In this document: in pieces, positions 821 through 62,990 of the stretch
Layout: the number at the start of each line of letters is the position of its first letter
How positions within the stretch are numbered: the stretch's first letter is position 1
From: Candidatus Gottesmanbacteria bacterium
Lineage (GTDB): Bacteria; Patescibacteriota; Microgenomatia; UBA10105; UBA927
Length of the DNA: 64,000 nt
Direction: 5' to 3'
Assembly: GCA_030679255.1 (NCBI GenBank)
Contig: JAUXTO010000013.1
Span: forward strand, 18,696 to 82,695
Program-made: the position numbers and the translations under genes
Notes under the pieces: model-generated
Database searches by the model: none
Seen by the model: only the letters and a program-made list of their open reading frames with translations
What the model was told of the DNA's origin: nothing

Positions 821-2035
821 TCATTGGAATTTGGAATTTCGTTCTTGAGCTACCTCTTCCAACACTTCCAACGTTTTTTTTGCCGCAGCCTCCCAAGTAA
901 ATTTACTCACCTGTTCAAGTCCTTTTTTTACTCTCCACTTCCCCTGCATCAAATTTCTATCCCGTACCGCAGAGAGAAGTCCCCGCGTGATACTCTTCGT
1001 GTCACCCGGATCCACGTAAACAGCAGCTTTTCCTGCAATTTCTGGTAAGCTTGATATCCTGCTCACCACGACCGGTACCGATCTCGCCATCGCTTCAAGA
1101 ACCGGCAAACCGAATCCTTCGTAGAGGCTGGGAAGCACAAAACAAAGTGCATGTTCATAAAGACAAGTGAGGTCTTTATCCGGCACAAAATCCAAAAATT
1201 TCACACGGTCAGATATTGCGCACTTCTCCGGAGCCGCAAGTATTTCTTCATAGAGCCACCCTTTCTTTCCGACGATCACCAAATCAATAGCACCGAACCG
1301 TTGTTTATTCGCCTTAAGAAATTCGGCGAATGCCTCAATGAGCCGCACGTAATTCTTCCGGGGCTGCAACGTCCCAACAGAAAGGATGTAGTTTGTTGAA
1401 ATATGATATTTACTTGTTATGGTTTGTTTGGTCATTGTAATTTGGGATTTGTAATTTGTCAGACCTGGGTACGTCACCACTACCTTTTGAGGCGTCACCC
1501 CGTATGCCTTGATTATAGCATTCTTGCTACATTCGCTGATGGTCAGTATGAGACGTGCGCGGGCGGCTGAATACGCCGTCCATTGAGTAAGCTGATACAG
1601 GTCATGCGGCCGGAATAATTCCGTATAATGGAGATAGGATACATCCATAATCGACATAACGCGCGGTACGCGCACAAATCTCGGTATGTAATGCGTAGGA
1701 GAAAATGCCACATCTGCCTTAGGTAAATCAGTTACCAACGCCAACGGCAGACGAAAAAGAGTCCAAAATTTCTTTGGCTGAAGTACGCGGTACTGCCACC
1801 AATCGGTCTGGGTAGGCATATCCGGAAGCGGCGCACTCGGGAGATAGATTCGAAACGTTGTGTTTTGGTGTTCACTTTCGACTTTCCCGCCTGCAACGCT
1901 TTGCGTAGCATTGCGGGCAGGTGACTTTCGACTTTCGACTTGCTCGTAAATATGTTTGAGAATCTCATACGCATATCGACCGATACCCACTCGTTCCCTT
2001 ACATTCGCTTCATAACCATCAATTGCAATTATCAT
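821..2035 (-). CDS. Glycosyltransferase family 4 (GT-B fold), full length
   Basis: C-terminal motif EGFGLPVLEAMARSVPVVVS..PEIAG. The N-terminal domain begins MIIAIDGYEA.. Start ATG at 2035-2033 overlaps the upstream stop (ATGA). Confidence 0.85.
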   Translation of the reverse strand: MIIAIDGYEANVRERVGIGRYAYEILKHIYEQVESRKSPARNATQSVAGGKVESEHQNTTFRIYLPSAPLPDMPTQTDWWQYRVLQPKKFWTLFRLPLALVTDLPKADVAFSPTHYIPRFVRVPRVMSIMDVSYLHYTELFRPHDLYQLTQWTAYSAARARLILTISECSKNAIIKAYGVTPQKVVVTYPGLTNYKSQITMTKQTITSKYHISTNYILSVGTLQPRKNYVRLIEAFAEFLKANKQRFGAIDLVIVGKKGWLYEEILAAPEKCAISDRVKFLDFVPDKDLTCLYEHALCFVLPSLYEGFGLPVLEAMARSVPVVVSRISSLPEIAGKAAVYVDPGDTKSITRGLLSAVRDRNLMQGKWRVKKGLEQVSKFTWEAAAKKTLEVLEEVAQERNSKFQ

Positions 2036-2577
2036 AGGTATCCCGGATAAACAACCTGTAATCTATTCTCTGGAATATTTAACAATTTACCAACGTCATT
2101 CTTTGTCGATTGTGAATCACAAAGGATAGTCTTGCATTCGCGTTTTATCCATGCAAGGCGTCGACCTTGTACCTCGAGGATACGTTTGGCAAACGTTTCG
2201 GGGTAACGCAAAAAACTCACATCATGGATGGTTGTGACTCCTAGAGCATGAGCCAGCGGAGGCTGTGTCCAGTCGCTGCTCCAAAAAACATCTATCGGGC
2301 CGGTGAACCACTCAACGGGTACGATATGAAGCGTATTCCAGATGAATTCCAGGAATGTAGGAGGAATCGGAACTGCCACTAAACGGATCCGGGAACTGCC
2401 CTCGCGCACCTCTTCAAAATACGCTTTAATGAAGGAAAGTTTCCGCAGTGAAGCACCAAAAAGAACATACTCGTTCTTCTGGTCAATGGCGAGGAGTGCT
2501 TTCACGAGATGACGGACATATTCGCCTACCCCCGTTCCCTCATGCACGATCTGGCTGATATCGATACCTATTTTCAT
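2032..2577 (-). CDS. GT4 N-terminal-domain-only protein (truncated glycosyltransferase fragment; possible pseudogene or standalone domain)
   Basis: 181 aa. Begins MKIGIDISQIVHEGTGVGEYVRHL like a GT4 N-domain and ends ..ENRLQVVYPGYL, exactly where the C-domain would begin. Its stop overlaps the start of the downstream full-length GT4 (ATGA). Confidence 0.55.
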   Translation of the reverse strand: MKIGIDISQIVHEGTGVGEYVRHLVKALLAIDQKNEYVLFGASLRKLSFIKAYFEEVREGSSRIRLVAVPIPPTFLEFIWNTLHIVPVEWFTGPIDVFWSSDWTQPPLAHALGVTTIHDVSFLRYPETFAKRILEVQGRRLAWIKRECKTILCDSQSTKNDVGKLLNIPENRLQVVYPGYL

Positions 2578-2617
2578 ATGTCTTACGTCCTACATCCTAC
2601 GTCTTATGTCCTACTTC
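2576..2617. repeat. Tandem heptamer tract, 6 units of TAYRTCY (minus-strand reading TAGGACR-like). It fills the entire gap between the galE stop and the start of the GT4 fragment.
   Basis: tatgtct|tacgtcc|tacatcc|tacgtct|tatgtcc|tacttct read directly. Same family as the tracts at 47259-47295 and 47706-47747. Confidence 0.8.
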
Positions 2618-3597
2618 TTCCCGTCTTCCAATCTCTTCTGATGCCATTTCCACGCCGTTTCTATGATGGTCGCCAATTCCGGGTATTCTGGTTCCCATCC
2701 GAGCACCGTTCGGGCTTTCTGATTATCCGCCCAGAGTTTGGCGGGGTCTCCGGGACGGCGCGGGGCAAACGAACGCATGACGCGCTGTCCAGTCACGCGC
2801 TCGACCGTATCCAATACTTCCAGATTGCTATATCCCTTCCCAACGCCGAGATTGATGGCTGTGGACTCTCCGCCGCGGGAGAGATACTCAACGGCTTTCA
2901 GATGCGCATGAGCCAGATCTACGACGTGTATGTAATCCCGTATGCATGTGCCATCCGGCGTTTCATAATCATTGCCATAGAGTTCAAATTTTTCCCGTTT
3001 CCCGGAAGCCACGTCAAGGGCGATAGGAATGATGTGAGATTCACGGCCGTGTGCCTCGCCCAAGCTTCCATCCGGAAGAGCCCCGGCAGCGTTAAAATAA
3101 CGAAGGATGACAAAGTTCGTGCTGTAAATCCGTCCATACCACTCAATCATCTCTTCGACCATCCGCTTGCTAGACCCATACACCGAAACCGGCGCAATCG
3201 CCGCATCCTCCATGACCGGTACGTGATCCGGATACCCATAAACAGCACTCGTCGAGGAAAAAATGACAGAAGGATTACCATGTAGCCTGACCGCCTCAAG
3301 CAAATTCAATCCCCCACGGAGATTATTATCAAAATATTCATACGGCTTCTCCATGGACTCTCCAGCGAGAGAGTAGGCAGCAAAATGAACGACCGCATCG
3401 AAAGACTCCGAGGCAAGAGCCTGATCAATATCTTCTTTATTACGGATATCCCCTACGATAAGCTTCGTGTCCCTGACTGCCTGCCTATGCCCGAGAGAAA
3501 GATTGTCAAAGACAACCGTTTCAAATCCCTGCTGCCTCAAAACTGCATTGGTGACGGAACCGATATAGCCTGCCCCCCCAGTGATGAGTATTTTCAT
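2611..3597 (-). CDS. galE: UDP-glucose 4-epimerase
   Basis: MKILITGGAGYIGS, ..YSLAGES.., ..YGSSKRMVE.. (YxxxK), and length 328 aa. Classic GalE SDR. Confidence 0.9.
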   Translation of the reverse strand: MKILITGGAGYIGSVTNAVLRQQGFETVVFDNLSLGHRQAVRDTKLIVGDIRNKEDIDQALASESFDAVVHFAAYSLAGESMEKPYEYFDNNLRGGLNLLEAVRLHGNPSVIFSSTSAVYGYPDHVPVMEDAAIAPVSVYGSSKRMVEEMIEWYGRIYSTNFVILRYFNAAGALPDGSLGEAHGRESHIIPIALDVASGKREKFELYGNDYETPDGTCIRDYIHVVDLAHAHLKAVEYLSRGGESTAINLGVGKGYSNLEVLDTVERVTGQRVMRSFAPRRPGDPAKLWADNQKARTVLGWEPEYPELATIIETAWKWHQKRLEDGKK

Positions 3598-3603
3598 GTA
3601 CCT

Positions 3604-3826
3604 TTATTCTACCCTATGCGGCCGGATGAGCGAAATGAGAATAAATGTGAGGAAATAGGCCGCTGCGTACCACGTCATCCTCTCTGCGGTAAAAAACGTC
3701 CAAGTCGCGAAAAGTGGTATTGCCAGGACCAGACACCCGAGTCCTACCCACACAAAAAATACTGGGCGGCGGACCAAGAGAAGCACGGCAAATACTATAA
3801 AAAATCCGACATCTTGTGGTTTCATA
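3604..3826 (-). CDS. Small 2-TM membrane protein (about 74 aa), function unknown
   Basis: Starts at the internal Met (MKPQDVGFF..), whose ATG overlaps the stop of the upstream UXS-like gene (ATGA). Two hydrophobic helices. The longer 94-aa ORF version would overlap the upstream gene by 67 nt. Confidence 0.45.
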
Positions 3827-4781
3827 ATGACCGGTAATAGGCAATGGTCTTTGAGAGTCCATCGGTGACGGATACGTTCGGTTCCCACGCGAGAACGGTC
3901 TTTGCCTTAGCAATATCCGGCTGGCGTTCATGCGGATCGTCTGTAGGCAATTCCTTGAATATAATTTCGGATGCAGATTTGATCATTTCTTTTATTTTCA
4001 AAGCCAAATCAACCATCCGATATTCTTCCGGATTACCCAAATTTATCACCTCGCCGTTCGTTTTTTCTCCAAACATTGCCTGCATGATGCCATCAACTAA
4101 ATCTGATACATAGCAAAATGACCGTGTCTGGGTCCCATCACCATAGACGGTCATGTGCTCGCCTTTGATCGCCTGGTTCACGAGATTGGATATCACCCGA
4201 CCATCGTCGGACCGCATCCTTGGCCCATAGGTGTTAAAAATACGGATAATGCGCGCATCGAGTTTGTATTTCCGTTGATAAACCATCGTCATCATTTCCC
4301 CGAACCGCTTTGACTCATCATAACATGCTCTGATCCCTACAGGATTCACGTTACCCCAATAGGTTTCCTTCTGTGGATGCTCTTTGGGATCCCCATACAC
4401 TTCCGACGTCGAAGCAAATAGAAATTTCGCACCGGTTTCCTGAGCGACTTCCAAGAGATTTCTCGTGCCAATCGAATTGACGAGCGCAGTTTCTTCAGGA
4501 TATTTTTGGTAATCCACGACCGAGGCAGGTGAAGCGAGATGAAAAATATAAGAAACGTTATTTAATTGTTTTATGGTTTCACGGTTCAATGGTTCTGAAA
4601 CATCATGATCGAGGAAAATAAACTGTGAATTGTCAAATGCATCAGAAAGATTTTCTTTTCTCCCAGTAACTAAATTGTCCACGCAGATGACGCTGTACCC
4701 GGCTCCAAGCAGCTTATCGCAAAGGTGCGAACCGATAAACCCCGCTCCTCCCGTCACCAAGCACGTTTTCTCATCGTTCAT
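3822..4781 (-). CDS. UDP-glucuronate decarboxylase family SDR (UXS / ArnA C-domain-like)
   Basis: LVTGGAGFIGSHL, ..ACYDESKRFGE.., DDGRVISN. 319 aa. Paralog at 32796-33914. Confidence 0.8.
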   Translation of the reverse strand: MNDEKTCLVTGGAGFIGSHLCDKLLGAGYSVICVDNLVTGRKENLSDAFDNSQFIFLDHDVSEPLNRETIKQLNNVSYIFHLASPASVVDYQKYPEETALVNSIGTRNLLEVAQETGAKFLFASTSEVYGDPKEHPQKETYWGNVNPVGIRACYDESKRFGEMMTMVYQRKYKLDARIIRIFNTYGPRMRSDDGRVISNLVNQAIKGEHMTVYGDGTQTRSFCYVSDLVDGIMQAMFGEKTNGEVINLGNPEEYRMVDLALKIKEMIKSASEIIFKELPTDDPHERQPDIAKAKTVLAWEPNVSVTDGLSKTIAYYRSL

Positions 4782-4793
4782 ACTACCATTGTA

Positions 4794-5969
4794 CTACTTC
4801 TTCCATTCACCGGCGAGCCACGACACTGCGGCAATCACGTCATGGATATCTTTCTCCCGCAAATTAGCTCCGAGCGGTAACGACACTGTTCTCTCGCCGA
4901 TAAACTCCGCATGAGGAAACATGTTTTTTTTGAAACCAAAGGTCTTACGGTAGTACTCATGGAGATGGACAGGACTGAAATGAACCCCGCTTCCGATGTT
5001 CATTTTGATCAGTTGATCGACAAAATCATCCCGGGATATCCGTAATTTCTCGAGTCGCAAGAGTATTGCAAATAAATGCCGTGCATGTTTTGTGTTGGGT
5101 GATTCGGCGGCCGGAAGCATGAGTTCCGGTACGCTTGTGAACGCATGCATATACGTTTCCCAATGTTGTTTTCTGATGACCCAATTTTTTTCCACACGGG
5201 CGAGTTGATGGATGCCGATTGATGAGGCAATATCCGTCAAATTGTATTTATATCCTGGAGTAACCGCTTCATAATGCCGGTAGTACCGCACGCTGTACCG
5301 CTTATATGCATCCTGCGATAAACCGTGGAGACTCATAATCCGCATGGACTCGGCAAATTTTTTACTATTTGTCGTTACCATCCCTCCTTCGCCGGTTGCA
5401 ATATTTTTCGTCACATAAAAAGAAAATACGGTGATATCGCCGATCGACCCAATCTTTTTCCGCTTATAGACTGCCTCTGCGGCATGGGCCGCATCCTCAA
5501 CGACAAAAAGCTTATGGCGGCGGGCAATACTCATGATTGCATCCATATCGCAAGGCCGCCCGTGCAGATGGACTGGCAAAATGACTTTTGTCTTGGAAGT
5601 AATCTTTTTTTCAATTTCCTTGGGATCAATATTCCATGTCTCCCGGTCCACATCGGCAAACACTGGGGTGGCGCCACAGTGGAGTATCACGTTGGCTGTA
5701 GACACAAAGGTGAGGGGAGTTGTGATGACTTCGTCGCCCTTCCCCACGCCTAATGCAATGAGGGCGAGATGCAGTCCCGCCGTTGCCGAATTGACACCGA
5801 GCGCGTATTTGGCTTTCGCGTAGTGTGCAAAGGCCGTTTCAAACTCTTCCGTCTTGGGCCCCGTCCCCCACCAACCCGATTTGAGGGTATCCACGACTTC
5901 GGCAATTTCCTCATGGCCGATGTAGGGCTTACCGAAAACCAAAAATGATTTTCTCTGCGGTTTCTTCAT
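4794..5969 (-). CDS. DegT/DnrJ/EryC1 family PLP-dependent sugar aminotransferase
   Basis: ..KSGWWGTGPKTEEFE.., NSATAGLHLAL, the DAAHA box, and FSFYVTKNIATGEGG with the catalytic Lys present. Confidence 0.85.
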   Translation of the reverse strand: MKKPQRKSFLVFGKPYIGHEEIAEVVDTLKSGWWGTGPKTEEFETAFAHYAKAKYALGVNSATAGLHLALIALGVGKGDEVITTPLTFVSTANVILHCGATPVFADVDRETWNIDPKEIEKKITSKTKVILPVHLHGRPCDMDAIMSIARRHKLFVVEDAAHAAEAVYKRKKIGSIGDITVFSFYVTKNIATGEGGMVTTNSKKFAESMRIMSLHGLSQDAYKRYSVRYYRHYEAVTPGYKYNLTDIASSIGIHQLARVEKNWVIRKQHWETYMHAFTSVPELMLPAAESPNTKHARHLFAILLRLEKLRISRDDFVDQLIKMNIGSGVHFSPVHLHEYYRKTFGFKKNMFPHAEFIGERTVSLPLGANLREKDIHDVIAAVSWLAGEWKK

Positions 5970-6018
5970 AGTTATTCAAGACCACCTCTTGCAAATTGCA
6001 AGAGGTGGTCTTATGAAA

Positions 6019-6561
6019 TTACGACTTAAATCTTCGTATCACCCTCGCCGGTACCCCTCCCACAAGAGTTTTTGGCGGTACATCCCGGGTCACGACTGCC
6101 CCGGCTCCCACTGCAGCCCCATCGCCTATCGTGAGTCCGGGGAGTATCACGACCCGCGCCCCAACGAAACATCCCCGTTTTAATCTCACTGGTTTGGCTA
6201 TGGAAGGAATCGACGCTTGCAGTGGATGATCTTTATACCCCACGTTTGTATGAGTAAGGATCATGACATCAAGCGACAGTGTCACATCGTCTTCCAGGGT
6301 TATCCTCTCCGCTAAATCCAAGGTTACCTCGTCTCCCAAAAAACAATTATCGCCCATTGAGATCCCACTGATCCCAGTCCTATACAGATTAACGAGACGG
6401 ATCCGTTCTATGACGGTATTTTGTCCAATCTGTGCGCCAAAGAGCCGCAAAATCCACACGCGCATCGGGGAGACAACCATCATGGCAAACAGATACTGCC
6501 AGAGGCTAAATAATCCATAACGGATAGCTTTTTCAATCCCGATTTCTTTGAATGCCATCAT
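6019..6561 (-). CDS. WcaF-like hexapeptide acetyltransferase
   Basis: Short N-terminus with [14 protein letters not shown] (WcaF-type motif). C-terminal LbH repeats ..[41 protein letters not shown]. Confidence 0.75.
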
Positions 6562-6565
6562 AAAT

Positions 6566-7297
6566 TTACGGTAACAAATATCCTTGTTTAACCAATTGTT
6601 TATGAAATCCCAAGAGGTTCTTTATGTATTCATATGTATCATGGACGAGCCGGACCGACGATTTTTTATCAAAACGGCGGATAAAGAGGACTGGCGCCTC
6701 ACGTATGACGAGTCCTGCGTAGTAGGCATACGTCATAATTTCAGTGTCCCAAAACCAACCATTATGCTTCGTCTTATTGAGAATAGGTAGTATCTTTTTC
6801 CGGTTAAAAAATTTATAGCCGGTCTCCGTATCCTGGAGAGGTATTCCCAACACCGATCGCACGAGCCAGGAATACCCACGGGATAGTATTGACCGATGAA
6901 TAGATGATAACCCTTCACGATACACCCGAAGCCCGGTGACGACATCAGCTTCCCCATCCAGAATCATACGGACAAATGACGGGATATATACCGACGAAAC
7001 TTCAAGATCAATATCGATAAACCCAACAACACCCCCGCGCGCAATGGCAATTCCATCCCGCACCGTTTTTCCCCTCCCTTGATTGACCGGGTGATAGAGT
7101 GCCCGGAAATTTTTGTTCTTTTTGACGAGTGACGCAATGATCTCCCTCGTCCCATCAGTACTTTTATCATCCACAAATATAAGTTCATAGGAAAACACAC
7201 TATCATCCAGCTCCGACGTTATACGGGTAACACTCTCCCGCAGAAGATTTTCTTCGTTATAGCAGGCGATGATGAGAGATAGATCAATATACTTCAT
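6566..7297 (-). CDS. GT2 polyprenol-phosphate glycosyltransferase (DPM1/GtrB/ArnC-like)
   Basis: [26 protein letters not shown].. GT-A motifs; 243 aa. Its first ~15 codons recur as decayed remnants at 8745-8775, 11845-11895, 13321-13374 and 13665-13715. Confidence 0.8.
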
Positions 7298-7300
7298 TCG

Positions 7301-7999
7301 TTAAAGAAAATGCATCGTCTTTTTGATTAAACTCTCAAGTTCTCCTATTAGCTTTGCCTTGGCCCAATCTTTTTGTGACTCGGTCAGAACCTCTCCTAGT
7401 CCAACGAGTATTTTCTTTGAGTCCCGGTTCGATACAAATTCCAAAAGTGATTTATAGAAATCTTTCGGCTGCTTACCAGTTCGATGTCTGATGATGTCAT
7501 AATTGATGTCTGTCGCATATGATGAACTTAAAAAATAGTGAATATCAAACAAATCCCTGTTTGCGATACTTTTTCTTTCCATGGAAGCTACCAGCTTGTG
7601 AGCAATCATATCCCGTATATGCATGGTCTTGACGGTTACACCATAAAACGGTAGTAAGCCGTAATGGTTATATGGATTATCCCTGGTCGATATTTCTACC
7701 TTTATGTGCGCCAAACCCAGGCCATAACTTACTACCCAAAACAGAGTATTAAATTTTGTACTATAGTCCTTGATATCGTATTTAGCAGATAATAATTGCG
7801 TCATCTGATCTCCTACCCCATCACTCTGAGACAGGAGATCAAAATCCAAATCTACGGAAAACCGAGGTAACTTATAAAAAAGCATCGCCGCTGTACCGCC
7901 TTTAAAGCCCAAAATAGGGCTCAGTGTGCTATTTTTGTAAATATCGAGCAAAATATTGGTCAGGTGTGTCTTGTGTTTGGTAATATCAAGCGCTTTCAT
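7301..7999 (-). CDS. AbiEii/AbiGii-family nucleotidyltransferase toxin (type IV toxin-antitoxin)
   Basis: GFKGGTAAMLFYKLPRFSVDLDFD motif. ATGA overlap with the upstream AbiEi gene. Confidence 0.8.
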   Translation of the reverse strand: MKALDITKHKTHLTNILLDIYKNSTLSPILGFKGGTAAMLFYKLPRFSVDLDFDLLSQSDGVGDQMTQLLSAKYDIKDYSTKFNTLFWVVSYGLGLAHIKVEISTRDNPYNHYGLLPFYGVTVKTMHIRDMIAHKLVASMERKSIANRDLFDIHYFLSSSYATDINYDIIRHRTGKQPKDFYKSLLEFVSNRDSKKILVGLGEVLTESQKDWAKAKLIGELESLIKKTMHFL

Positions 8000-8571
8000 A
8001 CGATGGTATATTTATTGATAAATCCTGCAATAACCGTATTGTTTCCGTACACATCGGTATTCAAATTCCTCATCAGCTCCCAATGAATATCACGCAAATT
8101 GTCAAAAAATGCATCTCCATCCAAATATAATGTATCGCACAGAGCCCGTTCCGGTGTAGCCTTATGGACACCGTCTACAAATATTGTTCCGATATGGTTG
8201 AGCAAAATATCATCTTTGATTTTTCGATAGATATATTTTTGACCATCAACTTCATATATTTCCGATCTCTGGGATACGGCGTATATGTCCGAATAGGGCT
8301 GAAATATGATTCCTACTTCCTGCAATACGGTGTAGAGGCTTATATAGGAAGGAGTTCTAAACTTATTGGCAAACTCTATCCTGGAATAATCGTTGGAAAA
8401 TGCATAAATACCCCGCGTAATTCTTTTTACATCCTTCTTTTTGGTCGCATATTTCAGAGCAGAATACAATTTGGCGCCACTATATCCTGCAACTTGTTGC
8501 GACAAATCAGAAACCAAATAAACAGTTTGACGGGAATTTTTACCTATGGATAACGCTTTTATATACCCCAT
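7996..8571 (-). CDS. AbiEi-family antitoxin / transcriptional autoregulator
   Basis: About 190 aa, immediately upstream of and translationally coupled to the AbiEii toxin. Family assignment rests on architecture plus sequence character. Confidence 0.65.
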   Translation of the reverse strand: MGYIKALSIGKNSRQTVYLVSDLSQQVAGYSGAKLYSALKYATKKKDVKRITRGIYAFSNDYSRIEFANKFRTPSYISLYTVLQEVGIIFQPYSDIYAVSQRSEIYEVDGQKYIYRKIKDDILLNHIGTIFVDGVHKATPERALCDTLYLDGDAFFDNLRDIHWELMRNLNTDVYGNNTVIAGFINKYTIV

Positions 8572-8619
8572 ATCACCCCGAAGTGTAAATTATTTCCATT
8601 TCCATGTCAAGAGAATCGA

Positions 8620-8740
8620 TTTAAAATAAAGACTCAGTGGGCTTTATATGATCAAGTGTTAGCTTACTATACAAAAATGTACAGTATCCTTACATTGATC
8701 ACAAGGAGATCTTTAAACACAGTAGCTTTTCCTCGTTTAA
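8620..8740. promoter_or_regulatory. Conserved ~100-bp element, copy 1, upstream of AbiEi #1. It contains the inverted repeat TGATCAAGTGT..N33..ACATTGATCA and is a candidate AbiEi operator/promoter.
   Basis: Near-identical copies occur at 10180-10290 and 13560-13660. Confidence 0.5.
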
Positions 8741-8781
8741 CAGGCGATCACGAGGGAAAGAACTGGTTAATTCATATTCTG

Positions 8782-9567
8782 CTATTTCGCCAATTCTCCA
8801 AAAAAATCCAACCTATCTGCCTGCTTTTCATCAAAGAGAAACGGCCGGAGTTTAATTTTATACCGCGAAAGCGATGAATATTCCAAGTCAAATTTCTTCC
8901 GTGCTCTATCCATTATATCAACCGGTATATGATTTGTTTTGGCAAAAGTTAGGTCTGGTTTGATCCCACGGGATAGAAGCCAAACGAGATCATATAAATC
9001 GCGAGGTTGGGTTTCCCCTCTTCCTACATACGCTGCTAACTTTTCTACCATCATCTGCTCAAGCGATTTGGTGACAACTGTGGCCAAAAAGCCATAACGA
9101 TTCACGAAAACCGTTTCCCGTATTTGTCCCCGCCAAGAGTATTCAATGTCCAGTTTAATCATCAATTTTTCATCTTTATTAGGACTCAGCTGAAGCTGAG
9201 TGAGTAATCCCGGAAAACGCAATTCGAAATAGCTTCTCTTTATCGTCTTATTTCGATGGAGTTCTACAGTAATATCCTCCTGCTGTAGCCTCTGGAGTAC
9301 GATATTCACGAGTAGGTGTACTTGAGGGGAAGGTATTCCGACCGCATCAAAATCCAAATCCTCGGAAAAGCGGTCAAGTCCGCGTAATATTCGGAGTGCT
9401 GTTCCACCGACAAAAAAAAGGTTTTGAGAAATTTTCTCCTGATAGAGAAACGAGAGAATTTTCGTCTGCAAATACTCCCGCAGAATTGCGCGTCGTTTCT
9501 CCGGGGGCAATCCATACGTCCGGGCAAAACTCAGGATTTCAGTAAAATTGACAATGGCATTATTCAT
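8782..9567 (-). CDS. AbiEii-family nucleotidyltransferase toxin, copy 2
   Basis: FFVGGTALRILRGLDRFSEDLDFD motif. Start taken at the internal Met (MNNAIV..), which gives an ATGA overlap with AbiEi #2. Confidence 0.75.
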   Translation of the reverse strand: MNNAIVNFTEILSFARTYGLPPEKRRAILREYLQTKILSFLYQEKISQNLFFVGGTALRILRGLDRFSEDLDFDAVGIPSPQVHLLVNIVLQRLQQEDITVELHRNKTIKRSYFELRFPGLLTQLQLSPNKDEKLMIKLDIEYSWRGQIRETVFVNRYGFLATVVTKSLEQMMVEKLAAYVGRGETQPRDLYDLVWLLSRGIKPDLTFAKTNHIPVDIMDRARKKFDLEYSSLSRYKIKLRPFLFDEKQADRLDFFGELAK

Positions 9568-10118
9568 GACAGTTTTATTTCCTGTATCCACTTCGGAAAA
9601 TGAACGGCATATTCACGGTATCGTTTCCAGTCCCAATCGTTAAGCTGTAAGCGCATTTCCGGTGAAATGCTCCGTATCCGTCGTAAATAAAAGTAATCCA
9701 AAAGCGCCTTTTCTTTGTACGCTATGGCAAACGGCGTTTGAGAGAAACCAAAAAAAAGTGCACGATCAACTTTGAAATAATGATATACCCCAAACCCCGT
9801 TTCAATTTTTTTCGTAGTAACCGGCGTGACACAACTGACCGCCATGGGAATATCCGGGATAATCCCGTAGTAATTGAGTGCTGTTTCCAAACTGACGTAG
9901 GATGGGAAATAGAGTTGTTCGGCCAACGCAAGTTCGTCAATGGTACTTTTGTCAAAACAATATAATCCCCGCTTAAGCTGAGAAATAAACCCCTTTTTTA
10001 CGAAACGGTAGAGCTGGGTCCTGATCGTCGAAGATTGCTCCGCTGGGAAAAGCTTCGCCACATCTAAAATCCGGAAATAATTTCCCTCAATTTGTTTCCT
10101 TAGATCTAAATACCTCAT
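9564..10118 (-). CDS. AbiEi-family antitoxin, copy 2
   Basis: 184 aa, upstream of and coupled to AbiEii #2. Same architecture as copies 1 and 3. Confidence 0.6.
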   Translation of the reverse strand: MRYLDLRKQIEGNYFRILDVAKLFPAEQSSTIRTQLYRFVKKGFISQLKRGLYCFDKSTIDELALAEQLYFPSYVSLETALNYYGIIPDIPMAVSCVTPVTTKKIETGFGVYHYFKVDRALFFGFSQTPFAIAYKEKALLDYFYLRRIRSISPEMRLQLNDWDWKRYREYAVHFPKWIQEIKLS

Positions 10119-10179
10119 TAACAGATAATATACAAAAATGTCTATTATTTGTCAACAACTAAATAGCACCATTTAGTAA

Positions 10180-10290
10180 CAAAATAATTGAGACTCGGTC
10201 ATCCTTATCTGATCAAATGTTACATTACTATACAAAAATGTACAGTATCCTTACATTGATCACAAGGAGATCTTTAAACACAGCACCATG
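10180..10290. promoter_or_regulatory. Conserved ~100-bp element, copy 2, upstream of AbiEi #2
   Basis: ..atgttacattactatacaaaaatgtacagtatccttacattgatcacaaggagatctttaaacaca is almost identical to 8660-8740. Confidence 0.5.
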
Positions 10291-10378
10291 GAATATGCCC
10301 ATCTTCTTCTAGGACATTTACATCAAATCTTTTTGGCATAAAATCGGACGGCCTCCTTACTTTTTTTGAGACGAATCC

Positions 10379-11098
10379 TCAACTGTTTCGCTCGATCTCC
10401 CTTTCTAAAGCATTACGGAAGTCCCGGATCATCAAAATCTGGCTCTTTGGAAGAAACAGTGACAGCTCTCTGTCAAAACTCAATGTAGTCTTAGATAGTA
10501 ATTGCTTCACTTTATATAACTGTTTTTTTTGGTCAGGTGTAAGTAAATTCGCCCGTAATAAAAAATATATGTCATAAAAATCACGAGCCTTCTGACGGTC
10601 AAATAATGCATGAAACTTACCTTCAATTAAATTGAAGGTAGATAAACTTTTTACGGGATAGAGAGAAACAAAATCATTTTCAACAGTAAATATCTCACCA
10701 GGTACAACATCTTTTCGAAACGATATTTCTAAGTGAATAGTAATAGGCTGACCAATATTTTTAAATAGTACAATACAAAGATAACCACCGCTAGTGGTTT
10801 TACTCTCTTTGATGTCTACCTCAATTCCTTCACGTGAGACATCGATGAGCGTCTCCTGCAAAATGTTTTCCCATATGCCACTGGTATGCACAGTAGTGTC
10901 AAAATCTAAATCCTCAGAAAAACGGGGGCTTCTATAGAGTAGTCGAAGTGCAGTTCCTCCTTTAAAATATAAATCTTTTGCTTCCGGTTTTTGGAAAAGA
11001 TAACTTAAGAGCACATGTTGTCCATATTCCCGATTTATATTTATATCCGGAGTTTGATATTTGATAGCAAGTTTTTGTAAATATGATGAACTAAGCAT
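10379..11098 (-). CDS. AbiEii-family nucleotidyltransferase toxin, copy 3 (more divergent)
   Basis: YFKGGTALRLLYRSPRFSEDLDFD motif. Confidence 0.75.
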   Translation of the reverse strand: MLSSSYLQKLAIKYQTPDININREYGQHVLLSYLFQKPEAKDLYFKGGTALRLLYRSPRFSEDLDFDTTVHTSGIWENILQETLIDVSREGIEVDIKESKTTSGGYLCIVLFKNIGQPITIHLEISFRKDVVPGEIFTVENDFVSLYPVKSLSTFNLIEGKFHALFDRQKARDFYDIYFLLRANLLTPDQKKQLYKVKQLLSKTTLSFDRELSLFLPKSQILMIRDFRNALEREIERNS

Positions 11099-11100
11099 AG

Positions 11101-11697
11101 TTATTTATCAAACACCTTGGCTACTAAAGCATTTAGAGATTTACTGGCGAAAAGCTTTGTATATATTTTTACCTTGTTTACATCAACAGTTGATAGGTCA
11201 AGGCGCTCTGACAGTGCTCTTCTCCCGAGTGAAACCGCATAGAGATAATCGACAATAGCTTTTTCCGGATCTGCAATAAAAAATCTTTTATGATCTGCTA
11301 CTTTCATTTCATATCCTGTATATGCACGAAGTTTAATAGTGGTATAGCGAAAACTTTTTGAATCAACCATATATTCCCGGGTAGGCTTCGTGGTAGCTGA
11401 AGTTATGGTGTAGACCATATCAGGTAAAATATTGTAATAAGCAAGTGCAAATTCAAATGATAGATATGAAGGGCGGTAAAGTTGATTAGCGATTTCCAAC
11501 TCAGAAGGTGGGTCAGTTTTCAGATAATACATCCCCCGTTTAGCCTGGATAAATAATCCATTCTCAGTACCTTTTTGGAGATAATACAGTGTTTGTCTGT
11601 TCGATAAAGAAAGCAATACGCCAAACTCCCGCGCTGAAAATATTGGGAGATGCTTGGCTAACAATGTATCTCTTATGCCTAAAAATGATGTTTTCAT
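11101..11697 (-). CDS. AbiEi-family antitoxin, copy 3
   Basis: 198 aa, immediately upstream of AbiEii #3, with a 2-nt gap. Confidence 0.6.
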   Translation of the reverse strand: MKTSFLGIRDTLLAKHLPIFSAREFGVLLSLSNRQTLYYLQKGTENGLFIQAKRGMYYLKTDPPSELEIANQLYRPSYLSFEFALAYYNILPDMVYTITSATTKPTREYMVDSKSFRYTTIKLRAYTGYEMKVADHKRFFIADPEKAIVDYLYAVSLGRRALSERLDLSTVDVNKVKIYTKLFASKSLNALVAKVFDK

Positions 11698-11931
11698 TTC
11701 ATTTATTACTTAAATATAGGTAATTACTGAAATGAGTATATCCCACTAGATAGATTTTGTCAACTATATCCATGCCTTGACAAAAAAACCAGACAGGCAC
11801 GCTTTTTTCGTTTCATAGTCCTATGAAGTCGTTTGCCCGTAGAAACTTTTCTTCATTGTGGGCAGGCGATGATGTGAGGGAGATCCGATTTCTTGAATAA
11901 ATTCGATGTCATCTAAAACTTGACTCACCGT

Positions 11932-13242
11932 TTATTCTCTTGAGAGAGTAGTCGAAAGCCACTTCCATAATGGTGTGTAAATGATTTCTATACCATTCAT
12001 AATACTAACCCCTTCCACGTCCCATGTAATCAATTGCCCGGATGATTGACCAAGCGATTTGGCAGCCTTTATAAGTGCCCTCGTCTCCCGTTCCGGTACT
12101 TCAGGCATGCTTGAAGCGAACGTTACCTGTATAAGTTCCTTTACGGTTTTATTATGCAATAGAACAAAATCAACTTCGTGATCTGAATAATCTTTCCAGT
12201 ACGCCACGTCATATCGGGGATCCCACGTGCTTCGTATATGTAATGCATGGAATACAGCCTGCTCCATCATGTATCCAAAATTTGTTGATACCGTGCTACT
12301 GAAATGAGAGGAAAAATAATTATCTACCAGATACGACTTCTTCACTGTTTGTATTCTTTTTTTTACATTTGCAGAAAATACCTCAAGACGGGCAATAAAA
12401 AATGACCACTCCAGCCAGTGCATGTATCGAATAACGGTCGCTTTACTTATTGCGTGTCCCGTCCCCTTGAGAGAGTTTGCTAATTTGGAATATGTATAGC
12501 TTCTCGTATTCGGCAACAAGCGTAATAAATCAGTAAACGCCTCTTTATTGCGCAGCTTATACCGGTCTACTATATCCCGATCTACAAAAGAAGAAAAGTA
12601 ATCCGCCAAAATGAGCGGCCGCAACCCTTCCTCTGCAAGCACTATCTCCGGCAGACCGCCAAACAATAGATATTCACGTAAAAGATTAAGAACGTGAGCA
12701 TGGGACACGCTCTGTATATCTACATCACGGAAACGCAAAAATTCATTCCAGTTCAAAGGAAACATGGGAATTGTAATGGTTTGTCCTCGAAGTTCTGTGG
12801 GAATCTCGCGCGAGGAAAGTTTTGAAGACGAACCGGAAAGAACAAGCCGGTGCTGTGTCGTCTCGTTTATTCGCCGTGCCCACATACTCCACTGGGGTAT
12901 CTCCTGTATCTCATCCATTAAAAGTACAAATGACTGGTTACCTTTTAGTTCCGTAAGTAAATCGGGAAGCATACTCAAAATCTCTGTTTTTTTCGGTACG
13001 CGCTCATCCTCAAAGTTTATATAGACACAACGTTCTTTCCCGTATTTTTGCGCAAAATCAAGAAGGCTGAATGTCTTCCCCACTCGTCTAAAACCGACGA
13101 CGGATACAATTTTTCGGACGTTAGGATCAAAATATGAGACTAAATTCACATCACGGGATTTTATTACGGGTAAGGGATTATTCCACCAATTCCTCACGAG
13201 GTCATTCAAAAGTTGTTTCATAATCGAATGTCTATGATACAA
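11932..13242 (-). CDS. AAA+ ATPase of the DUF4143/AAA_14 type
   Basis: P-loop VGFRRVGKTFSL, Walker B LLMDEIQ. 436 aa. The common stand-alone ATP-binding-protein family. Confidence 0.75.
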   Translation of the reverse strand: MYHRHSIMKQLLNDLVRNWWNNPLPVIKSRDVNLVSYFDPNVRKIVSVVGFRRVGKTFSLLDFAQKYGKERCVYINFEDERVPKKTEILSMLPDLLTELKGNQSFVLLMDEIQEIPQWSMWARRINETTQHRLVLSGSSSKLSSREIPTELRGQTITIPMFPLNWNEFLRFRDVDIQSVSHAHVLNLLREYLLFGGLPEIVLAEEGLRPLILADYFSSFVDRDIVDRYKLRNKEAFTDLLRLLPNTRSYTYSKLANSLKGTGHAISKATVIRYMHWLEWSFFIARLEVFSANVKKRIQTVKKSYLVDNYFSSHFSSTVSTNFGYMMEQAVFHALHIRSTWDPRYDVAYWKDYSDHEVDFVLLHNKTVKELIQVTFASSMPEVPERETRALIKAAKSLGQSSGQLITWDVEGVSIMNGIEIIYTPLWKWLSTTLSRE

Positions 13243-13273
13243 TATTCATTAATCCTGTATTATAGTATCAATT

Positions 13274-13363
13274 CTACACACGATTGTCAATAATCCCAAC
13301 GTTCTCCCCCAGAAGCTTTTCTTCGTTATAGCAGGCGATGAGAGAGAGGTCAACGTGCTTCAT
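13274..13363 (-). pseudogene. Remnant of the GT2 (6566-7297) N-terminus
   Basis: Minus-strand translation MKHVDLSLIACYNEEKLLGENVGIIDNRV*, versus the intact gene [19 protein letters not shown]. Nucleotides 13321-13374 align to 7251-7304. Confidence 0.7.
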
Positions 13364-13376
13364 TCGTTAAATCTTT

Positions 13377-13511
13377 CTATTTGGTCGCATATTTCAGAGC
13401 AGAATACAATTTGGCGCCACTATATCCTGCAACTTGTTGTGATAAATCCGAAACCAAATAAACAGTTTGACGGGAATTTTTACCTATGGATAACGATTTT
13501 ATATACCCCAT
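13377..13511 (-). pseudogene. Truncated AbiEi N-terminal remnant (44 codons then stop)
   Basis: Translates MGYIKSLSIGKNSRQTVYLVSDLSQQVAGYSGAKLYSALKYATK*, nearly identical to the first 44 aa of AbiEi #1. 13380-13560 aligns to 8441-8620. Confidence 0.75.
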
Positions 13512-13559
13512 ATCACCCTGAGGTGTAAATTATTTCCATTTCCACGTCAAGAGAATCTA

Positions 13560-13660
13560 TTTAAAATTGAGACTTAGTCGTCCTTATATGATCAAGTGTT
13601 AGCTTACTATACATAAATGTACATTATCGTGACACTGATCACACGAAAATCTTTCCATGT
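13560..13660. promoter_or_regulatory. Conserved ~100-bp element, copy 3 (orphan, upstream of the AbiEi remnant)
   Basis: Aligns to 8620-8740 with a few substitutions. Confidence 0.5.
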
Positions 13661-13746
13661 AGTAGCTAGTCTTCATTGTAGCAGGCGGTGATGAGAGAGA
13701 TCCGATTTCTTCATTTGACCGATTGTAACATACGACCAAATCCAAA

Positions 13747-19872: not shown

Positions 19873-20942
19873 ACCCGAAGTGCCTGTTGTATTTCCGGAA
19901 GGGTACGGAGAAGAGCAATAACGCCTGCTACATCAAGTTGTATCGTGCTTGCCGATGTATAAGCGTCAATAGTATCGACATCTTTTTGTTCCTTACCCCC
20001 ACGCAATAGATACTTATTGTAATCCAATCCCTGGCTCTCCGGAGGAATATCAAAGTAATTATCAAGTTCGTGAGCTCTTGCCATTTCCTCTTTCGATACG
20101 AGAGTCTCGTGTATCTTCTCCCCTGCACGCATCCCGATCTCCTCATATCCTTCTTTATACCCAAACAGTTTGCACATCGCCTGAGCAAGAGTCTCTACGC
20201 TGCATGCAGGAGCCTTGCGGACATAGATATGCCCGCTCTCTCCATGAGTAAGCGCATACATAACCAAACCAACGGCATCCCGCAGCGGTAGAAGAAATCT
20301 CGTCATAGACCCGTACGTAAGAGTGAGTTTCTGTTTTTTCTTCATAAGGTCTATATAAAATGGAATAACCGATCCGCGTGAATACAACACGTTGCCATAC
20401 CGCACGCCACAGTACACGCCTCCGGATTTTCCGGTTGGGGGATAATTTTTTGCTGCGGCGATCATCGTTTTTTCCATGAGCGCCTTTGCCATACCCATGG
20501 CATTAATCGGATAAACGGCCTTATCCGTGCTTAAGACAACGACACGCTTCACTTTGTGAAATGCTGCAGCAGAGAGTACATTATGGGTACCAATGATATT
20601 GGTCTTAACTGCCTCCATCGGGAAAAACTCACAACTGGGAACCTGTTTGAGTGCCGCAGCGTGGAAAATATAATCAACCCCCTCTATTGCCCTCATGACA
20701 CTTTGCTCATCCCGCACGTCACCGATAATGAACGTTAATTTCGGATTATTGAACTCATTGCGCATATCATCCTGTTTTTTTTCGTCCCTGCTATAAATAA
20801 TGATCTTCTGAGGGTCATAGTGAAGAAGTTCAACAGCTACGGTATGGCCAAATGATCCTGTTCCTCCGGTTATCAGTATGGTCTTGCCGGCTAAAGCAAC
20901 TTCGAGGTCCTTACGAATTGGTGTTTTCAAATCATTTTTCAT
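19869..20942 (-). CDS. UDP-GlcNAc 4,6-dehydratase of the PglF/PseB/CapD family
   Basis: ILITGGTGSFG, IIYSRDEKKQ, FIIGDVRD, LSTDKAVYPINAMGMAK. Met replaces the SDR catalytic Tyr, as reported for the PglF/WbpM type. Start taken at the internal Met (MKNDLKTP). Confidence 0.75.
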   Translation of the reverse strand: MKNDLKTPIRKDLEVALAGKTILITGGTGSFGHTVAVELLHYDPQKIIIYSRDEKKQDDMRNEFNNPKLTFIIGDVRDEQSVMRAIEGVDYIFHAAALKQVPSCEFFPMEAVKTNIIGTHNVLSAAAFHKVKRVVVLSTDKAVYPINAMGMAKALMEKTMIAAAKNYPPTGKSGGVYCGVRYGNVLYSRGSVIPFYIDLMKKKQKLTLTYGSMTRFLLPLRDAVGLVMYALTHGESGHIYVRKAPACSVETLAQAMCKLFGYKEGYEEIGMRAGEKIHETLVSKEEMARAHELDNYFDIPPESQGLDYNKYLLRGGKEQKDVDTIDAYTSASTIQLDVAGVIALLRTLPEIQQALRV

Positions 20943-23064: not shown

Positions 23065-23066
23065 GA

Positions 23067-23696
23067 CTAAATAGTTTTTACGGCAAAAAGATCAAATGAC
23101 TTAGTGGGAAAAAAATATAAGATTGGCTCCGTAATAAAAGCAATGAGACCCCAAAAAAACCATGGCTTATACTTTATGGTCGCAAACTCACCTCGGAGCC
23201 AATGAAAACTTCGTAGTCCATGTACTATGTATCCCCGTTTTTCAAAATCCTTAGCTGACCAACCGGAGTGATGATCCTGATATGGATTATTGTCATAGTG
23301 ACCTTGTTTACAAAAACCATTTGGGGTAAGGATAATTACTTTTTTCTTCGCGATACGCTCCATGCTACTCATGAACAAAAATGCCTGTTTTTTTGTCAAA
23401 TGTTCGATTACGTCCATTGCTACAACAGCATCAAAACTCTTCGGTTTATAGTAAACATCTAATTTTGTTATATCTCCGACTTTATATTTATTATGAAGTT
23501 TATTTTTTTTACTTATGGTGACGCTTTTTCTGTCAATTTCAATTCCTTCCGAATAGATAGATTTAATCTCAGACCGGATTGATGAATTCTGACCGCATCC
23601 AACATCCAGTATCGATGTGCAACCTGACAACTGCACGCGGACTGCAGTATGGAAAAACATATCTTTATTCTCATGAATTAATTGTATTATGTTCAT
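23067..23696 (-). CDS. Class I SAM-dependent methyltransferase
   Basis: ILDVGCGQNSS, DAVVAMDVIEHL. AT-rich. Confidence 0.7.
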   Translation of the reverse strand: MNIIQLIHENKDMFFHTAVRVQLSGCTSILDVGCGQNSSIRSEIKSIYSEGIEIDRKSVTISKKNKLHNKYKVGDITKLDVYYKPKSFDAVVAMDVIEHLTKKQAFLFMSSMERIAKKKVIILTPNGFCKQGHYDNNPYQDHHSGWSAKDFEKRGYIVHGLRSFHWLRGEFATIKYKPWFFWGLIAFITEPILYFFPTKSFDLFAVKTI

Positions 23697-23700
23697 AAGT

Positions 23701-27453: not shown

Positions 27454-27767
27454 TCTTTTAGTTGCTGCACCAAGCCTACTCCCATTAGAAAAAATAACCA
27501 CACTGCTGCTTTTTCCGTATTTTCCGAAGCACCTGACAAAAGAAATTCAATATACATAATGATCAATACGAAAAGGCTTAAAATAAACGTGAAACGACCT
27601 GACAATTTATAAATAAAAATACTTGCTATATAGATTCCTAATAAAGTAAAAATCCGTATGTCCGAACTTTCTTTCAAAAAAAGAATATCCGCACAAATCC
27701 CCAAAAAGATTGTGGTTAAAATAACCTGCTTGCCTTGCTGTAATACATTGAATACCTTCTTTCTCAT
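27450..27767 (-). CDS. Small (105 aa) 3-4 TM membrane protein (GtrA/DUF2304-like size class), function unknown
   Basis: Hydrophobic helices; sits between the two giant paralogs. Confidence 0.4.
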   Translation of the reverse strand: MRKKVFNVLQQGKQVILTTIFLGICADILFLKESSDIRIFTLLGIYIASIFIYKLSGRFTFILSLFVLIIMYIEFLLSGASENTEKAAVWLFFLMGVGLVQQLKE

Positions 27768-27777
27768 AAGATAGTAA

Positions 27778-57138: not shown

Positions 57139-57151
57139 AACACACCATGTA

Positions 57152-62987: not shown

Positions 62988-62990
62988 ATA

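Follow-up and report, generated by a model that had tools for sequence, protein, structure and literature searches.

In the 64-kb stretch of DNA analysed here (the window), a glycan-gene cluster from a metagenome-assembled genome (MAG) of Candidatus Gottesmanbacteria, a member of the Patescibacteria or candidate phyla radiation (CPR), three AbiEi/AbiEii toxin-antitoxin (TA) pairs and an ATPase of the PADLOC type PDC-S01 lie ahead of a gene for a GT2 glycosyltransferase. This region is probably a cassette-accretion hotspot in its occupied state, located at the 5' end of the GT2 gene and holding four separately acquired cassettes together with the scars of lost ones. GT2 is the target gene of the hotspot. 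Three cassettes each end in a copy of the GT2 start of ~60-70 nt, and the start codon and first codons that GT2 now uses come from the cassette of pair 1. At the far upstream end, the original GT2 start has been left behind along with its native promoter.

A Pfam scan of every open reading frame (ORF) of at least 150 aa in the window found, besides the cassettes, glycan-biosynthesis genes, a second PDC-S01 gene, and several large ORFs without a Pfam match. A sequence-only reading of this DNA had described the cassettes as embedded in a glycan-biosynthesis operon, and the Pfam domains of the flanks agree. The seven minus-strand ORFs that it delimited are three AbiEi/AbiEii pairs and one ATPase; counting outwards from GT2, we call the antitoxins A1 to A3 and the toxins T1 to T3. 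The nearest relatives of GT2 itself are from Patescibacteria and Gottesmanbacteria MAGs.

The duplicated target ends were located with an nhmmer profile of the GT2 5' end for which only true GT2 starts were used, taken from 13 other genomes. This profile has exactly five matches in the window, all on the minus strand, with the next best at an E-value of 0.027. Besides the working start, these are four decayed copies covering about -5 to +60/+72 of GT2 (boxes b to e). In the order of transcription, the layout is: native GT2 promoter and ancestral start, R98c, A1', box d, PDC-S01 ATPase, box c, A3/T3, a 95-nt spacer, R98b, A2/T2, box b, R98a, A1/T1, and working GT2, where R98 is a 98-nt repeat and A1' a pseudogene. 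The 5' arm of a box goes with the cassette upstream of it: ATGAAgCAACCAGTT follows T2 in the window and in two related loci, L003 and L166, the second of which uses it as the working GT2 start. Because this arm travels with the upstream cassette and the native promoter lies at the leftmost box, we infer that each cassette brings new first codons for GT2 and leaves the old start upstream.

GT2 orthologues and their flanks were taken from genome and metagenome collections and by exact look-up, yielding 15 loci (74-85% identity; L numbers below). The site is empty in L005, L006, L084, and L162, and in L094 and L165 a methyltransferase gene is directly adjacent to GT2, with no defence cassette. 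L004 has the methyltransferase, a box, and a reversed-order AbiEii-AbiEi pair at the site, L003 has a second PDC-S01 type, an A2/T2 orthologue, a further AbiE pair, and a reversed pair, with a box at each junction, and L166 reads box, reversed pair, box, PDC-S01 type 2, A2/T2 (95-97% identical to the window), and GT2. The T2 orthologue is 97% identical in L166 and 86% in L003. An A1/T1 orthologue occupies the site in L085 and L168 (T1 is 89% identical in L168), only a box and the cassette promoter are left in L087, and L163 and L164 carry a pair of a winged-helix (wHTH) protein and a DUF6036-like nucleotidyltransferase (NTase), with no PADLOC match. Boxes in several copies were found in 9 locus records, of which 7 are distinct related loci. 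Empty and occupied sites can be compared directly: L162 and L163 have a common upstream gene and native leader, after which L163 shows the GT2 start to about +52, the cassette, and then a second complete GT2 start. The difference between L094 and L004 is of the same kind.

Other observations were made in these loci. In L004, a GT2-5' box comes directly after the methyltransferase gene (7879-8691), the position taken by an intact GT2 in L094 and L165; therefore, the box-like sequence in the latter two is the working GT2 start. The reversed-order AbiE module, with AbiEii first and an ATGA overlap where the usual order has the antitoxin first, is present in three genomes (L003 4754-6027, L004 8730-9985, and L166 3811-5066); a long inverted repeat covers both the promoter and the start codon of the module. 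The pair of L163 (6813-8001) and L164 (221-1418) consists of a 198-aa winged-helix protein (HTH_Crp_2 just under the cut-off) and a 202-205-aa protein with a sub-threshold DUF6036 match, and may be an undescribed HTH-NTase TA system. In L166, an HTH_17 plus PIN (VapBC-like) pair at 8748-9483, downstream of the same GT2 and between it and an acetyltransferase gene, marks a second insertion point in the conserved block.

In addition, at least two lost cassettes have left deletion scars in the window. The first ~65 nt of R98 are the left end of the reversed AbiEii-AbiEi cassette, i.e. its long inverted repeat over the promoter and its ATG TAT AGT ATG start, and the last ~50 nt correspond to the terminal part of the PDC-S01 type-2 gene plus what follows it. 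In R98a, the operator and start of a lost reversed cassette are fused to the 3' end of a PDC-S01 type-2 gene that is likewise lost. The spacer ahead of A2 aligns with L166 in two places, positions 94-161 with 3761-3828 and positions 146-260 with 6543-6657 (94% identity); given these two matching segments and their overlap, R98b marks where an L166-like array underwent a ~2.7-kb deletion, which removed the reversed pair and the second ATPase. The segment at 13367-13666 contains R98, the A1 promoter, and the first 44 A1 codons and, after a stop, joins the last T1 bases and a GT2 box; it is a second copy of the A1/T1 cassette with an internal deletion. A non-coding RNA or a mobile miniature inverted-repeat transposable element was considered for R98 and rejected, as the repeat has no Rfam match, occurs at only three sites in the window, and is explained as a cassette fusion. 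The 95-nt spacer after T3 gave no nhmmer box match, and its 21-aa peptide has no Pfam match, on which ground a HicB-like remnant was dismissed, and is not conserved in L168. This spacer may be the remnant of another gene.

We weighed whether the array could be a chimera, in which strain variants with one cassette each were joined through shared repeats during assembly. Independent Logan contigs do end inside the repeats, and strains with different cassettes at the site exist. Nevertheless, 1911-8469 and 10254-13409 recur at 100% identity in two independent contigs that Logan holds for the same run, and the linkages T1-GT2 and ATPase-box-A3/T3 are therefore confirmed. Moreover, arrays of several cassettes with internal boxes are present in four other assemblies (L003, L166, L168, and L170), and the repeat copies are 81-91% identical, which makes them poor glue for mis-joins. 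An assembly artefact is thus very improbable.

Table 1 Features of the cassette array and the adjacent GT2 gene (window coordinates unless a locus is given).
Feature	Position	Strand	Evidence and remarks
GT2 glycosyltransferase, 243 aa	6566-7297	-	Pfam PF00535 E 3e-26; named GT2 of Candidatus Gottesmanbacteria by NCBI
Working GT2-5' box (about -5 to +72), reference copy	7225-7301	-	nhmmer E 2.1e-21
T1, predicted AbiEii/DUF1814 nucleotidyltransferase toxin, 232 aa	7301-7999	-	PF08843 E 2e-20, 74 bits; PADLOC PDLC02324 E 8e-55
A1, predicted AbiEi antitoxin, 191 aa	7996-8571	-	PADLOC PDLC02255 E 1e-37
A1/T1 promoter-like site	8582-8610	-	TTGACA-17-TACACT
R98a, 98-nt scar	8625-8722	-	Repeat family; homology to L166, L003, L004; palindrome z = -3.4
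Box b remnant	8719-8780	-	nhmmer E 1.6e-8; 5' arm ATGAAtTAACCAGTT, same arm after T2 in L003 and L166
T2, predicted AbiEii toxin, 261 aa (ATG)	8782-9567	-	PF08843 E 9e-23, 82 bits; PADLOC PDLC02313 E 3e-47
A2, predicted AbiEi antitoxin, 184 aa	9564-10118	-	PADLOC PDLC02241 E 4e-40
A2/T2 promoter-like site	10127-10155	-	TTGACA-17-TATATT; overlapped by a 23-nt palindrome copy
R98b, deletion junction	10186-10283	-	Two parental segments overlap by 16 nt
95-nt spacer after T3, not a GT2 box	10284-10378	-	Strong GGAGG ribosome-binding site and 21-codon ORF (MPKRFDVNVLEEDGHIPWCCV)
T3, predicted AbiEii toxin, 239 aa	10379-11098	-	PF08843 E 3e-27, 96 bits
A3, predicted AbiEi antitoxin, 198 aa	11101-11697	-	PADLOC PDLC02272 E 1e-35
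A3/T3 promoter-like site	11735-11763	-	TTGACA-17-TATACT
Box c remnant, between ATPase and A3	11836-11899	-	nhmmer E 7.7e-10
PDC-S01-type ATPase (AAA_14 + DUF4143), 429 aa from ATG 13221	11932-13221	-	PF13173 104 bits; PF13635 67 bits; PADLOC PDLC04787 E 6e-82
ATPase promoter-like site	13262-13290	-	TTGACA-17-TACTAT; TG-extended; conserved in L002
Box d remnant, directly after the last T1 bases (TTTAACGA)	13296-13368	-	nhmmer E 6.7e-17
A1' pseudogene, first 44 codons of an A1 copy, then TAG	13371-13511	-	300-nt duplication 8427-8726 / 13367-13666, 90% identity
R98c, third and most decayed copy	13565-13662	-	81% identity
Ancestral GT2 start with native TGnTACAAT promoter	13659-13746	-	Box e 13659-13720, nhmmer E 1.2e-11; upstream sequence matches native GT2 leaders of L084 and L087
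Q-V-T/C subfamily members of PDC-S01	window 11932-13221; L002 8531-9823; L023 16703-17989 and 18115-19404

The pairs are not copies of one another. The toxins are mutually 25-31% identical and the antitoxins 29-32%, DNA similarity between pairs is restricted to the codons of the catalytic motifs, the best PADLOC model differs for each pair, and single cassettes have 86-97% identical orthologues in other genomes, in other combinations. The three pairs were thus acquired separately, from different AbiE subfamilies. A recent tandem duplication is ruled out by the contrast between 25-32% identity among the pairs and 86-97% to orthologues elsewhere. The sequence-only reading was right that no recent triplication had occurred, while its term triplicated does not fit these identities, subfamilies, and orthologues, and neither does its view of the third pair as the more divergent one, since the greatest similarity is between pairs 2 and 3 (E 1e-16 and 3e-18), with pair 1 standing apart. 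A full in-situ scenario would have an ancestral AbiE pair duplicated twice, with the ATPase working with pair 3 and the whole forming one unit for glycan variation and abortive infection. Three pairs of the same orientation do stand in a row beside glycan genes, and a PDC-S01 gene adjoins an AbiE pair in L003 and L166 too; set against the divergence of the pairs, their different best models, the orthologues in other combinations, and the separateness of the ATPase described below, this scenario is hardly credible. As to a combined island of receptor variation and abortive infection, the data show that the genes lie together where a variable glycan cluster has a recombination-prone boundary, and such co-residence would arise without functional coupling.

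The ATPase is an independent cassette. It has its own promoter, a GT2-5' remnant separates it from A3, and in L002 an 87% identical orthologue adjoins GT2 as a lone cassette, no AbiE gene lying less than 10 kb away; for these reasons it is considered independent of pair 3, of which it had been proposed to be a partner. It also comes first in the direction of transcription, rather than after the pairs as had been described. Its assignment as a P-loop AAA_14/DUF4143 protein is sound, as both Pfam domains pass their cut-offs. A TTG start would extend the gene to 11932-13242; the ATG at 13221 is likelier and was chosen by an independent gene call. Walker A (GFRRVGKT) and Walker B (LLMDE) are both intact, and the PD-(D/E)xK triad of the DUF4143 domain is incomplete, with E and D present and QVT in place of E-x-K. 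Q-V-T/C instead of E-x-K is found in 4 of 5 aligned PDC-S01 sequences, including the L002 and L023 relatives, and the L003 type has E-A-K. In this small sample, the nuclease of the Q-V-T/C members may be inactive or may work differently.

Other PDC-S01 genes were noticed. The window contains a second ATPase of this type at 49799-50956 (minus strand; PADLOC E 2e-83), which shares only 22% identity with the first and is flanked by a GT2 gene and a flippase gene in DNA of low GC; it has its own TTGACA promoter with a palindrome, and by eye no duplicated gene end beside it. In L023 / L104 (16703-20683), three tandem PDC-S01 paralogues lie downstream of a more distant GT2 homologue.

Systems with a DUF1814 NTase toxin have been called type IV and are now proposed as type VII TA systems. 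All three toxins score far above the PF08843 gathering cut-off of 22.5 bits, and T3 was also recovered in an independently assembled contig (L167). The gene of T2 has an alternative GTG start at 9591 (8782-9591, 269 aa). When T1-T3 were aligned with three relatives, the glycines of motif I (G34/G35), motif II R-x-S-x-D-x-D (R46/S48/D50/D52), motif III K...R (K135/R142; pattern K-x-x-A-x-x-x-R), and motif IV RDxxD (R148/D149/D152) were invariant; relatives in the PDB are 4o8s, 9hlo, and 6y56. Motifs I (hGG/S), II (R-x-S/T-x-D-x-D), III, and IV are each needed for toxicity, which is abolished by mutation (Dy 2014, PMC3985639), and the phospho-acceptor is the Ser/Thr that precedes the first catalytic Asp by two positions, T65 in Streptococcus agalactiae AbiEii (bioRxiv 10.64898/2026.01.19.700257). 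A Ser at this position is invariant in the same alignment (S48 in T1). Judged from their sequences, T1-T3 are genuine AbiEii-family nucleotidyltransferases.

The antitoxins match PADLOC AbiEi models over nearly their full length (E about 1e-35 to 4e-40), and relatives of A1 are labelled COG5340 by JGI. An AlphaFold (AF2) model of A1 built from 58 homologues has a pLDDT (predicted local distance difference test) of 90.8, and its top PDB structure match is S. agalactiae AbiEi 6y8q (E 1e-5, template modelling score, TM, 0.51), with M. tuberculosis Rv2827c 1zel also matched. According to this model, A1 has the two-domain AbiEi fold, with an N-terminal winged helix and a C-terminal neutralising domain. 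PDB sequence searches with the antitoxin profile and with the ATPase gave no matches, and the link of A1 to AbiEi came only from the fold search. In all three pairs, the antitoxin gene is directly upstream of the toxin gene in one operon. Pairs 1 and 2 have a 4-nt ATGA stop/start overlap and in pair 3 the A3 stop lies 2 nt before the T3 ATG, an arrangement consistent with the translational coupling that had been proposed. From the PF08843 matches, the motifs, the PADLOC AbiEi matches, and the A1 fold, it follows that the toxins carry the nucleotidyltransferase motifs and that their ~190-aa partners show AbiEi homology, so the three consecutive AbiEi-AbiEii pairs of the earlier reading stand; for the antitoxins, this holds for the PADLOC models and the fold, whereas the scores for Pfam AbiEi_4 and NCBIfam remain under the cut-offs.

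Each cassette carries its own predicted sigma-70-type promoter. The four best promoter-like matches on the strand all combine a perfect TTGACA with a 17-nt spacer, and one lies ahead of each of the ATPase, A3, A2, and A1; terminator-like sites were not found between the cassettes. Inverted repeats overlap the A2 and A3 promoters, the latter (11687-11742) lying between the A3 promoter-like site and the start codon, and a palindrome lies upstream of A1. These are putative operators. Because the GT2 ATG is 3 nt after the T1 stop, with no promoter in between, GT2 would be co-transcribed with A1/T1; it could be read from the cassette promoters, and the downstream operon might well be too. The native GT2 promoter, TGnTACAAT, at 13712-13727 (minus strand), is likewise found just upstream of GT2 in L084 and L087. 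The ATG follows 7 nt after its -10 element, and the mRNA of an uninterrupted GT2 is therefore probably leaderless.

How cassettes might enter is constrained by the box boundaries. The 3' boundary clusters near +69 and lies at +52 in L163, at +57 at one L003 junction, and at about +102 in L168, which rules out a fixed insertion point at +69; in L004, the crossover is at the far end of the box. Box copies share no hairpin (z = +1.3 to -3.0, no common structure). Cassettes may enter by recombination within the first 50-100 nt of GT2, in which case homology-driven or illegitimate joining (a circle plus single crossover, or transformation) would be likelier than a dedicated integrase. In the alternative of site-specific mobile cassettes, the GT2-5' box would be the attachment (att) site of a tyrosine or serine recombinase encoded elsewhere, as in integrons or cis-mobilizable elements (CIMEs). 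The direct target repeat at most junctions and the many boundaries near +69 would suit this alternative, cassettes bring a replacement 5' end as gene-integrating elements do, and tandem accretion at tRNA/tmRNA genes looks similar (PMC3146451, PMC5704250). Yet the scanned ORFs of the window contain no integrase, transposase, or recombinase domain, a regular-expression scan of the close loci for recombinase motifs was negative, which is a weak test, the boundaries and crossover points differ without a consistent hairpin, every cassette has its own promoter, and no viral contig matched. We regard recombinase-driven mobility as quite doubtful. Two further candidates were discarded: a tRNA or tmRNA as integration target, since the window has no tRNA genes, and a phage or viral carrier, since the box and R98 motifs are absent from viral contigs.

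The cassettes have moved and have been maintained. Between the window and L166, the synonymous divergence (Ks) is 0.17-0.27 for A2/T2 and 1.2 for the adjacent GT2, and between the window and L002 it is 0.75 for the ATPase and 2.8 for GT2; the lower values of the cassettes indicate that they moved between lineages more recently than the flank diverged. The ratio of nonsynonymous to synonymous divergence (Ka/Ks) versus orthologues is 0.07-0.18 for A1, T1, A2, T2, and the ATPase (T1 0.07 with L168, T2 0.09-0.11 with L166/L003, ATPase 0.10 with L002), indicating purifying selection.

What is selected can be proposed from the characterised AbiE family (Dy 2014, PMC3985639; Cai 2020, PMC7450476; Arrowsmith 2026, bioRxiv 10.64898/2026.01.19.700257). 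By this analogy, the AbiEii DUF1814 nucleotidyltransferase would add nucleotides to tRNA 3' ends and halt translation, AbiEi would bind AbiEii and induce auto-phosphorylation of the motif-II Ser, and the winged-helix domain of AbiEi would repress its own promoter. Loss of antitoxin control, through phage infection or loss of the locus, would free the toxin and lead to abortive infection or post-segregational stabilisation. The ATPase might act alone as a candidate defence gene. Abortive infection and the stabilisation of a deletion-prone island are both plausible pay-offs, and the two roles are mutually compatible. That the AbiE modules mainly protect a recombination-prone, horizontally acquired island from deletion, in the way that TA cassettes act within chromosomal integron arrays, with little effect on phages, we hold to be possible but somewhat unlikely. 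Direct repeats flank most cassettes and ease deletion, deletion scars are present, AbiE has been shown to stabilise plasmids (PMC3985639), and other TA types occur at the locus in L166 (HTH_17 + PIN) and L170 (PhdYeFM); on the other hand, cassettes have been lost repeatedly all the same, as scars and empty sites show, and the enrichment of AbiE and PDC candidates in small-genome symbionts has been read as defence (PMC12988326).

Several points weigh against an accretion hotspot of defence and TA cassettes as we describe it. The junction from T3 to R98b has no GT2 box, the box boundaries vary from about +52 to +102 with no recombinase found, and the proposed insertion mechanism is a guess. The order of units across the repeats depends on one MAG assembly, as both independent contigs break inside repeats. 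Promoter-like sites show no overall excess (22 versus 21.2 in shuffles). The antitoxins score 16-20 bits with Pfam AbiEi_4, under the cut-off of 25, and 20-54 bits with NCBIfam TAA_AbiEi, against a cut-off of 150 (A2 E 2e-14). PDC-S01 is an unvalidated defence candidate (PMC12988326), the copy in the array lacks the E-x-K of the nuclease motif, and the AbiE and ATPase activities are predicted from the genes.

Elsewhere in the window, the large Pfam-silent ORFs lie at 20932-30246 (minus strand), 54387-58285, and 61341-63992 (minus strand), with lengths of 710, 1266, 822, 536, 387, 377, 548, and 333 aa; five of them were compared with PADLOC and gave no match. Being inside the glycan cluster, and several of them in a block of 35% GC, they are probably membrane or surface proteins. 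Tandem AbiE modules beside glycan genes are also found elsewhere: in L170 (2822-8876; Candidatus Woesebacteria, MGHC01000035.1), whose array was seen in 24 contigs, a DegT aminotransferase gene is preceded by three tandem AbiE pairs and one inverted pair, and the array comprises four AbiEii genes together with a PhdYeFM antitoxin. After each tandem AbiE pair, and again ahead of DegT, there is a short repeat (GTGATGCAATACA); this repeated leader hints at a capture process that extends beyond one gene.

The value of the region lies in its architecture, which is a record of how an uncultured CPR lineage poor in mobile elements gains and loses defence and TA cassettes at one site. The record consists of comparisons of empty and occupied sites, duplicated target ends, and datable deletion scars, and as a result the insertion mechanism can be tested with existing metagenomic reads. 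If the conserved glycan operon is transcribed from TA promoters, as is probable, these organisms, which rely on surface contact with a host, would have their cell-surface synthesis tied to TA regulation. A broader and speculative proposal, which we think unlikely, is that CPR bacteria of the Microgenomates group have an integrase-independent capture process for small defence or TA cassettes, each carrying a promoter and a replacement 5' end. Repeated capture would then build an integron-like array at the head of the glycan operon, which would fall under the auto-repressed AbiE promoter of the last cassette, and the expression of surface glycans would follow the TA module's state.

Among known systems, the pairs resemble AbiE of S. 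agalactiae and Lactococcus and MenAT of M. tuberculosis in their two-gene operon, in which the antitoxin leads and the stop and start codons overlap, in motifs I-IV, in the R-x-S/T-x-D-x-D context of the phospho-acceptor, in the two-domain AbiEi fold (A1 model), and in the promoter inverted repeats. They differ in that A1 is 15-16% identical to characterised members (structural alignment), the antitoxins stay below the cut-offs of Pfam and NCBIfam, the host belongs to the CPR, and three non-orthologous modules stand in tandem. The ATPase shares with PADLOC PDC-S01 a full-length hidden Markov model match, the same domain pair, intact Walker A and B motifs, and organisation as a single-gene unit, and differs by Q-V-T where E-x-K is expected. 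The gene content is as one would expect, since AbiE and PDC candidates are reported to be enriched in DPANN archaea, in parallel with host-dependent bacteria of small genome size such as Patescibacteria (PMC12988326).

The array itself is closest in form to accretion systems. Arrays of CIMEs, integrative mobilizable elements (IMEs), and ICEs (integrative and conjugative elements), as well as the ssrA islands of Dehalococcoides (PMC3146451), also arise by serial insertions at one target, with each element restoring the target gene, and the window has the partial target copy at its internal junctions (four remnants and a working copy), the T3/R98b junction excepted. Unlike in those systems, insertion is into a protein gene, at its 5' coding end, and not at the 3' end of a tRNA or tmRNA, the units are 1.3-1.5 kb long, no integrase was found, and there is no fixed crossover core. 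Chromosomal integron arrays with TA cassettes likewise hold small single-function cassettes in one orientation, with TA promoters of their own and turnover between strains. In contrast, the window has no IntI, attI, or attC-like folds, and its repeat is a fragment of the neighbouring gene; the absence of IntI, boxes that do not fold like attC, and cassettes that carry promoters led us to reject an integron. Finally, defence-island hotspots between core genes share the variable defence content at a syntenic position and the empty and occupied states, and differ in that here duplicated 5' ends of the flanking gene are left behind and the cassette gives GT2 its promoter and first codons. In summary, the genes belong to known families and are unremarkable within them. 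The accretion architecture varies on hotspot and accretion patterns already described, and its less usual part is the insertion scars between the genes.

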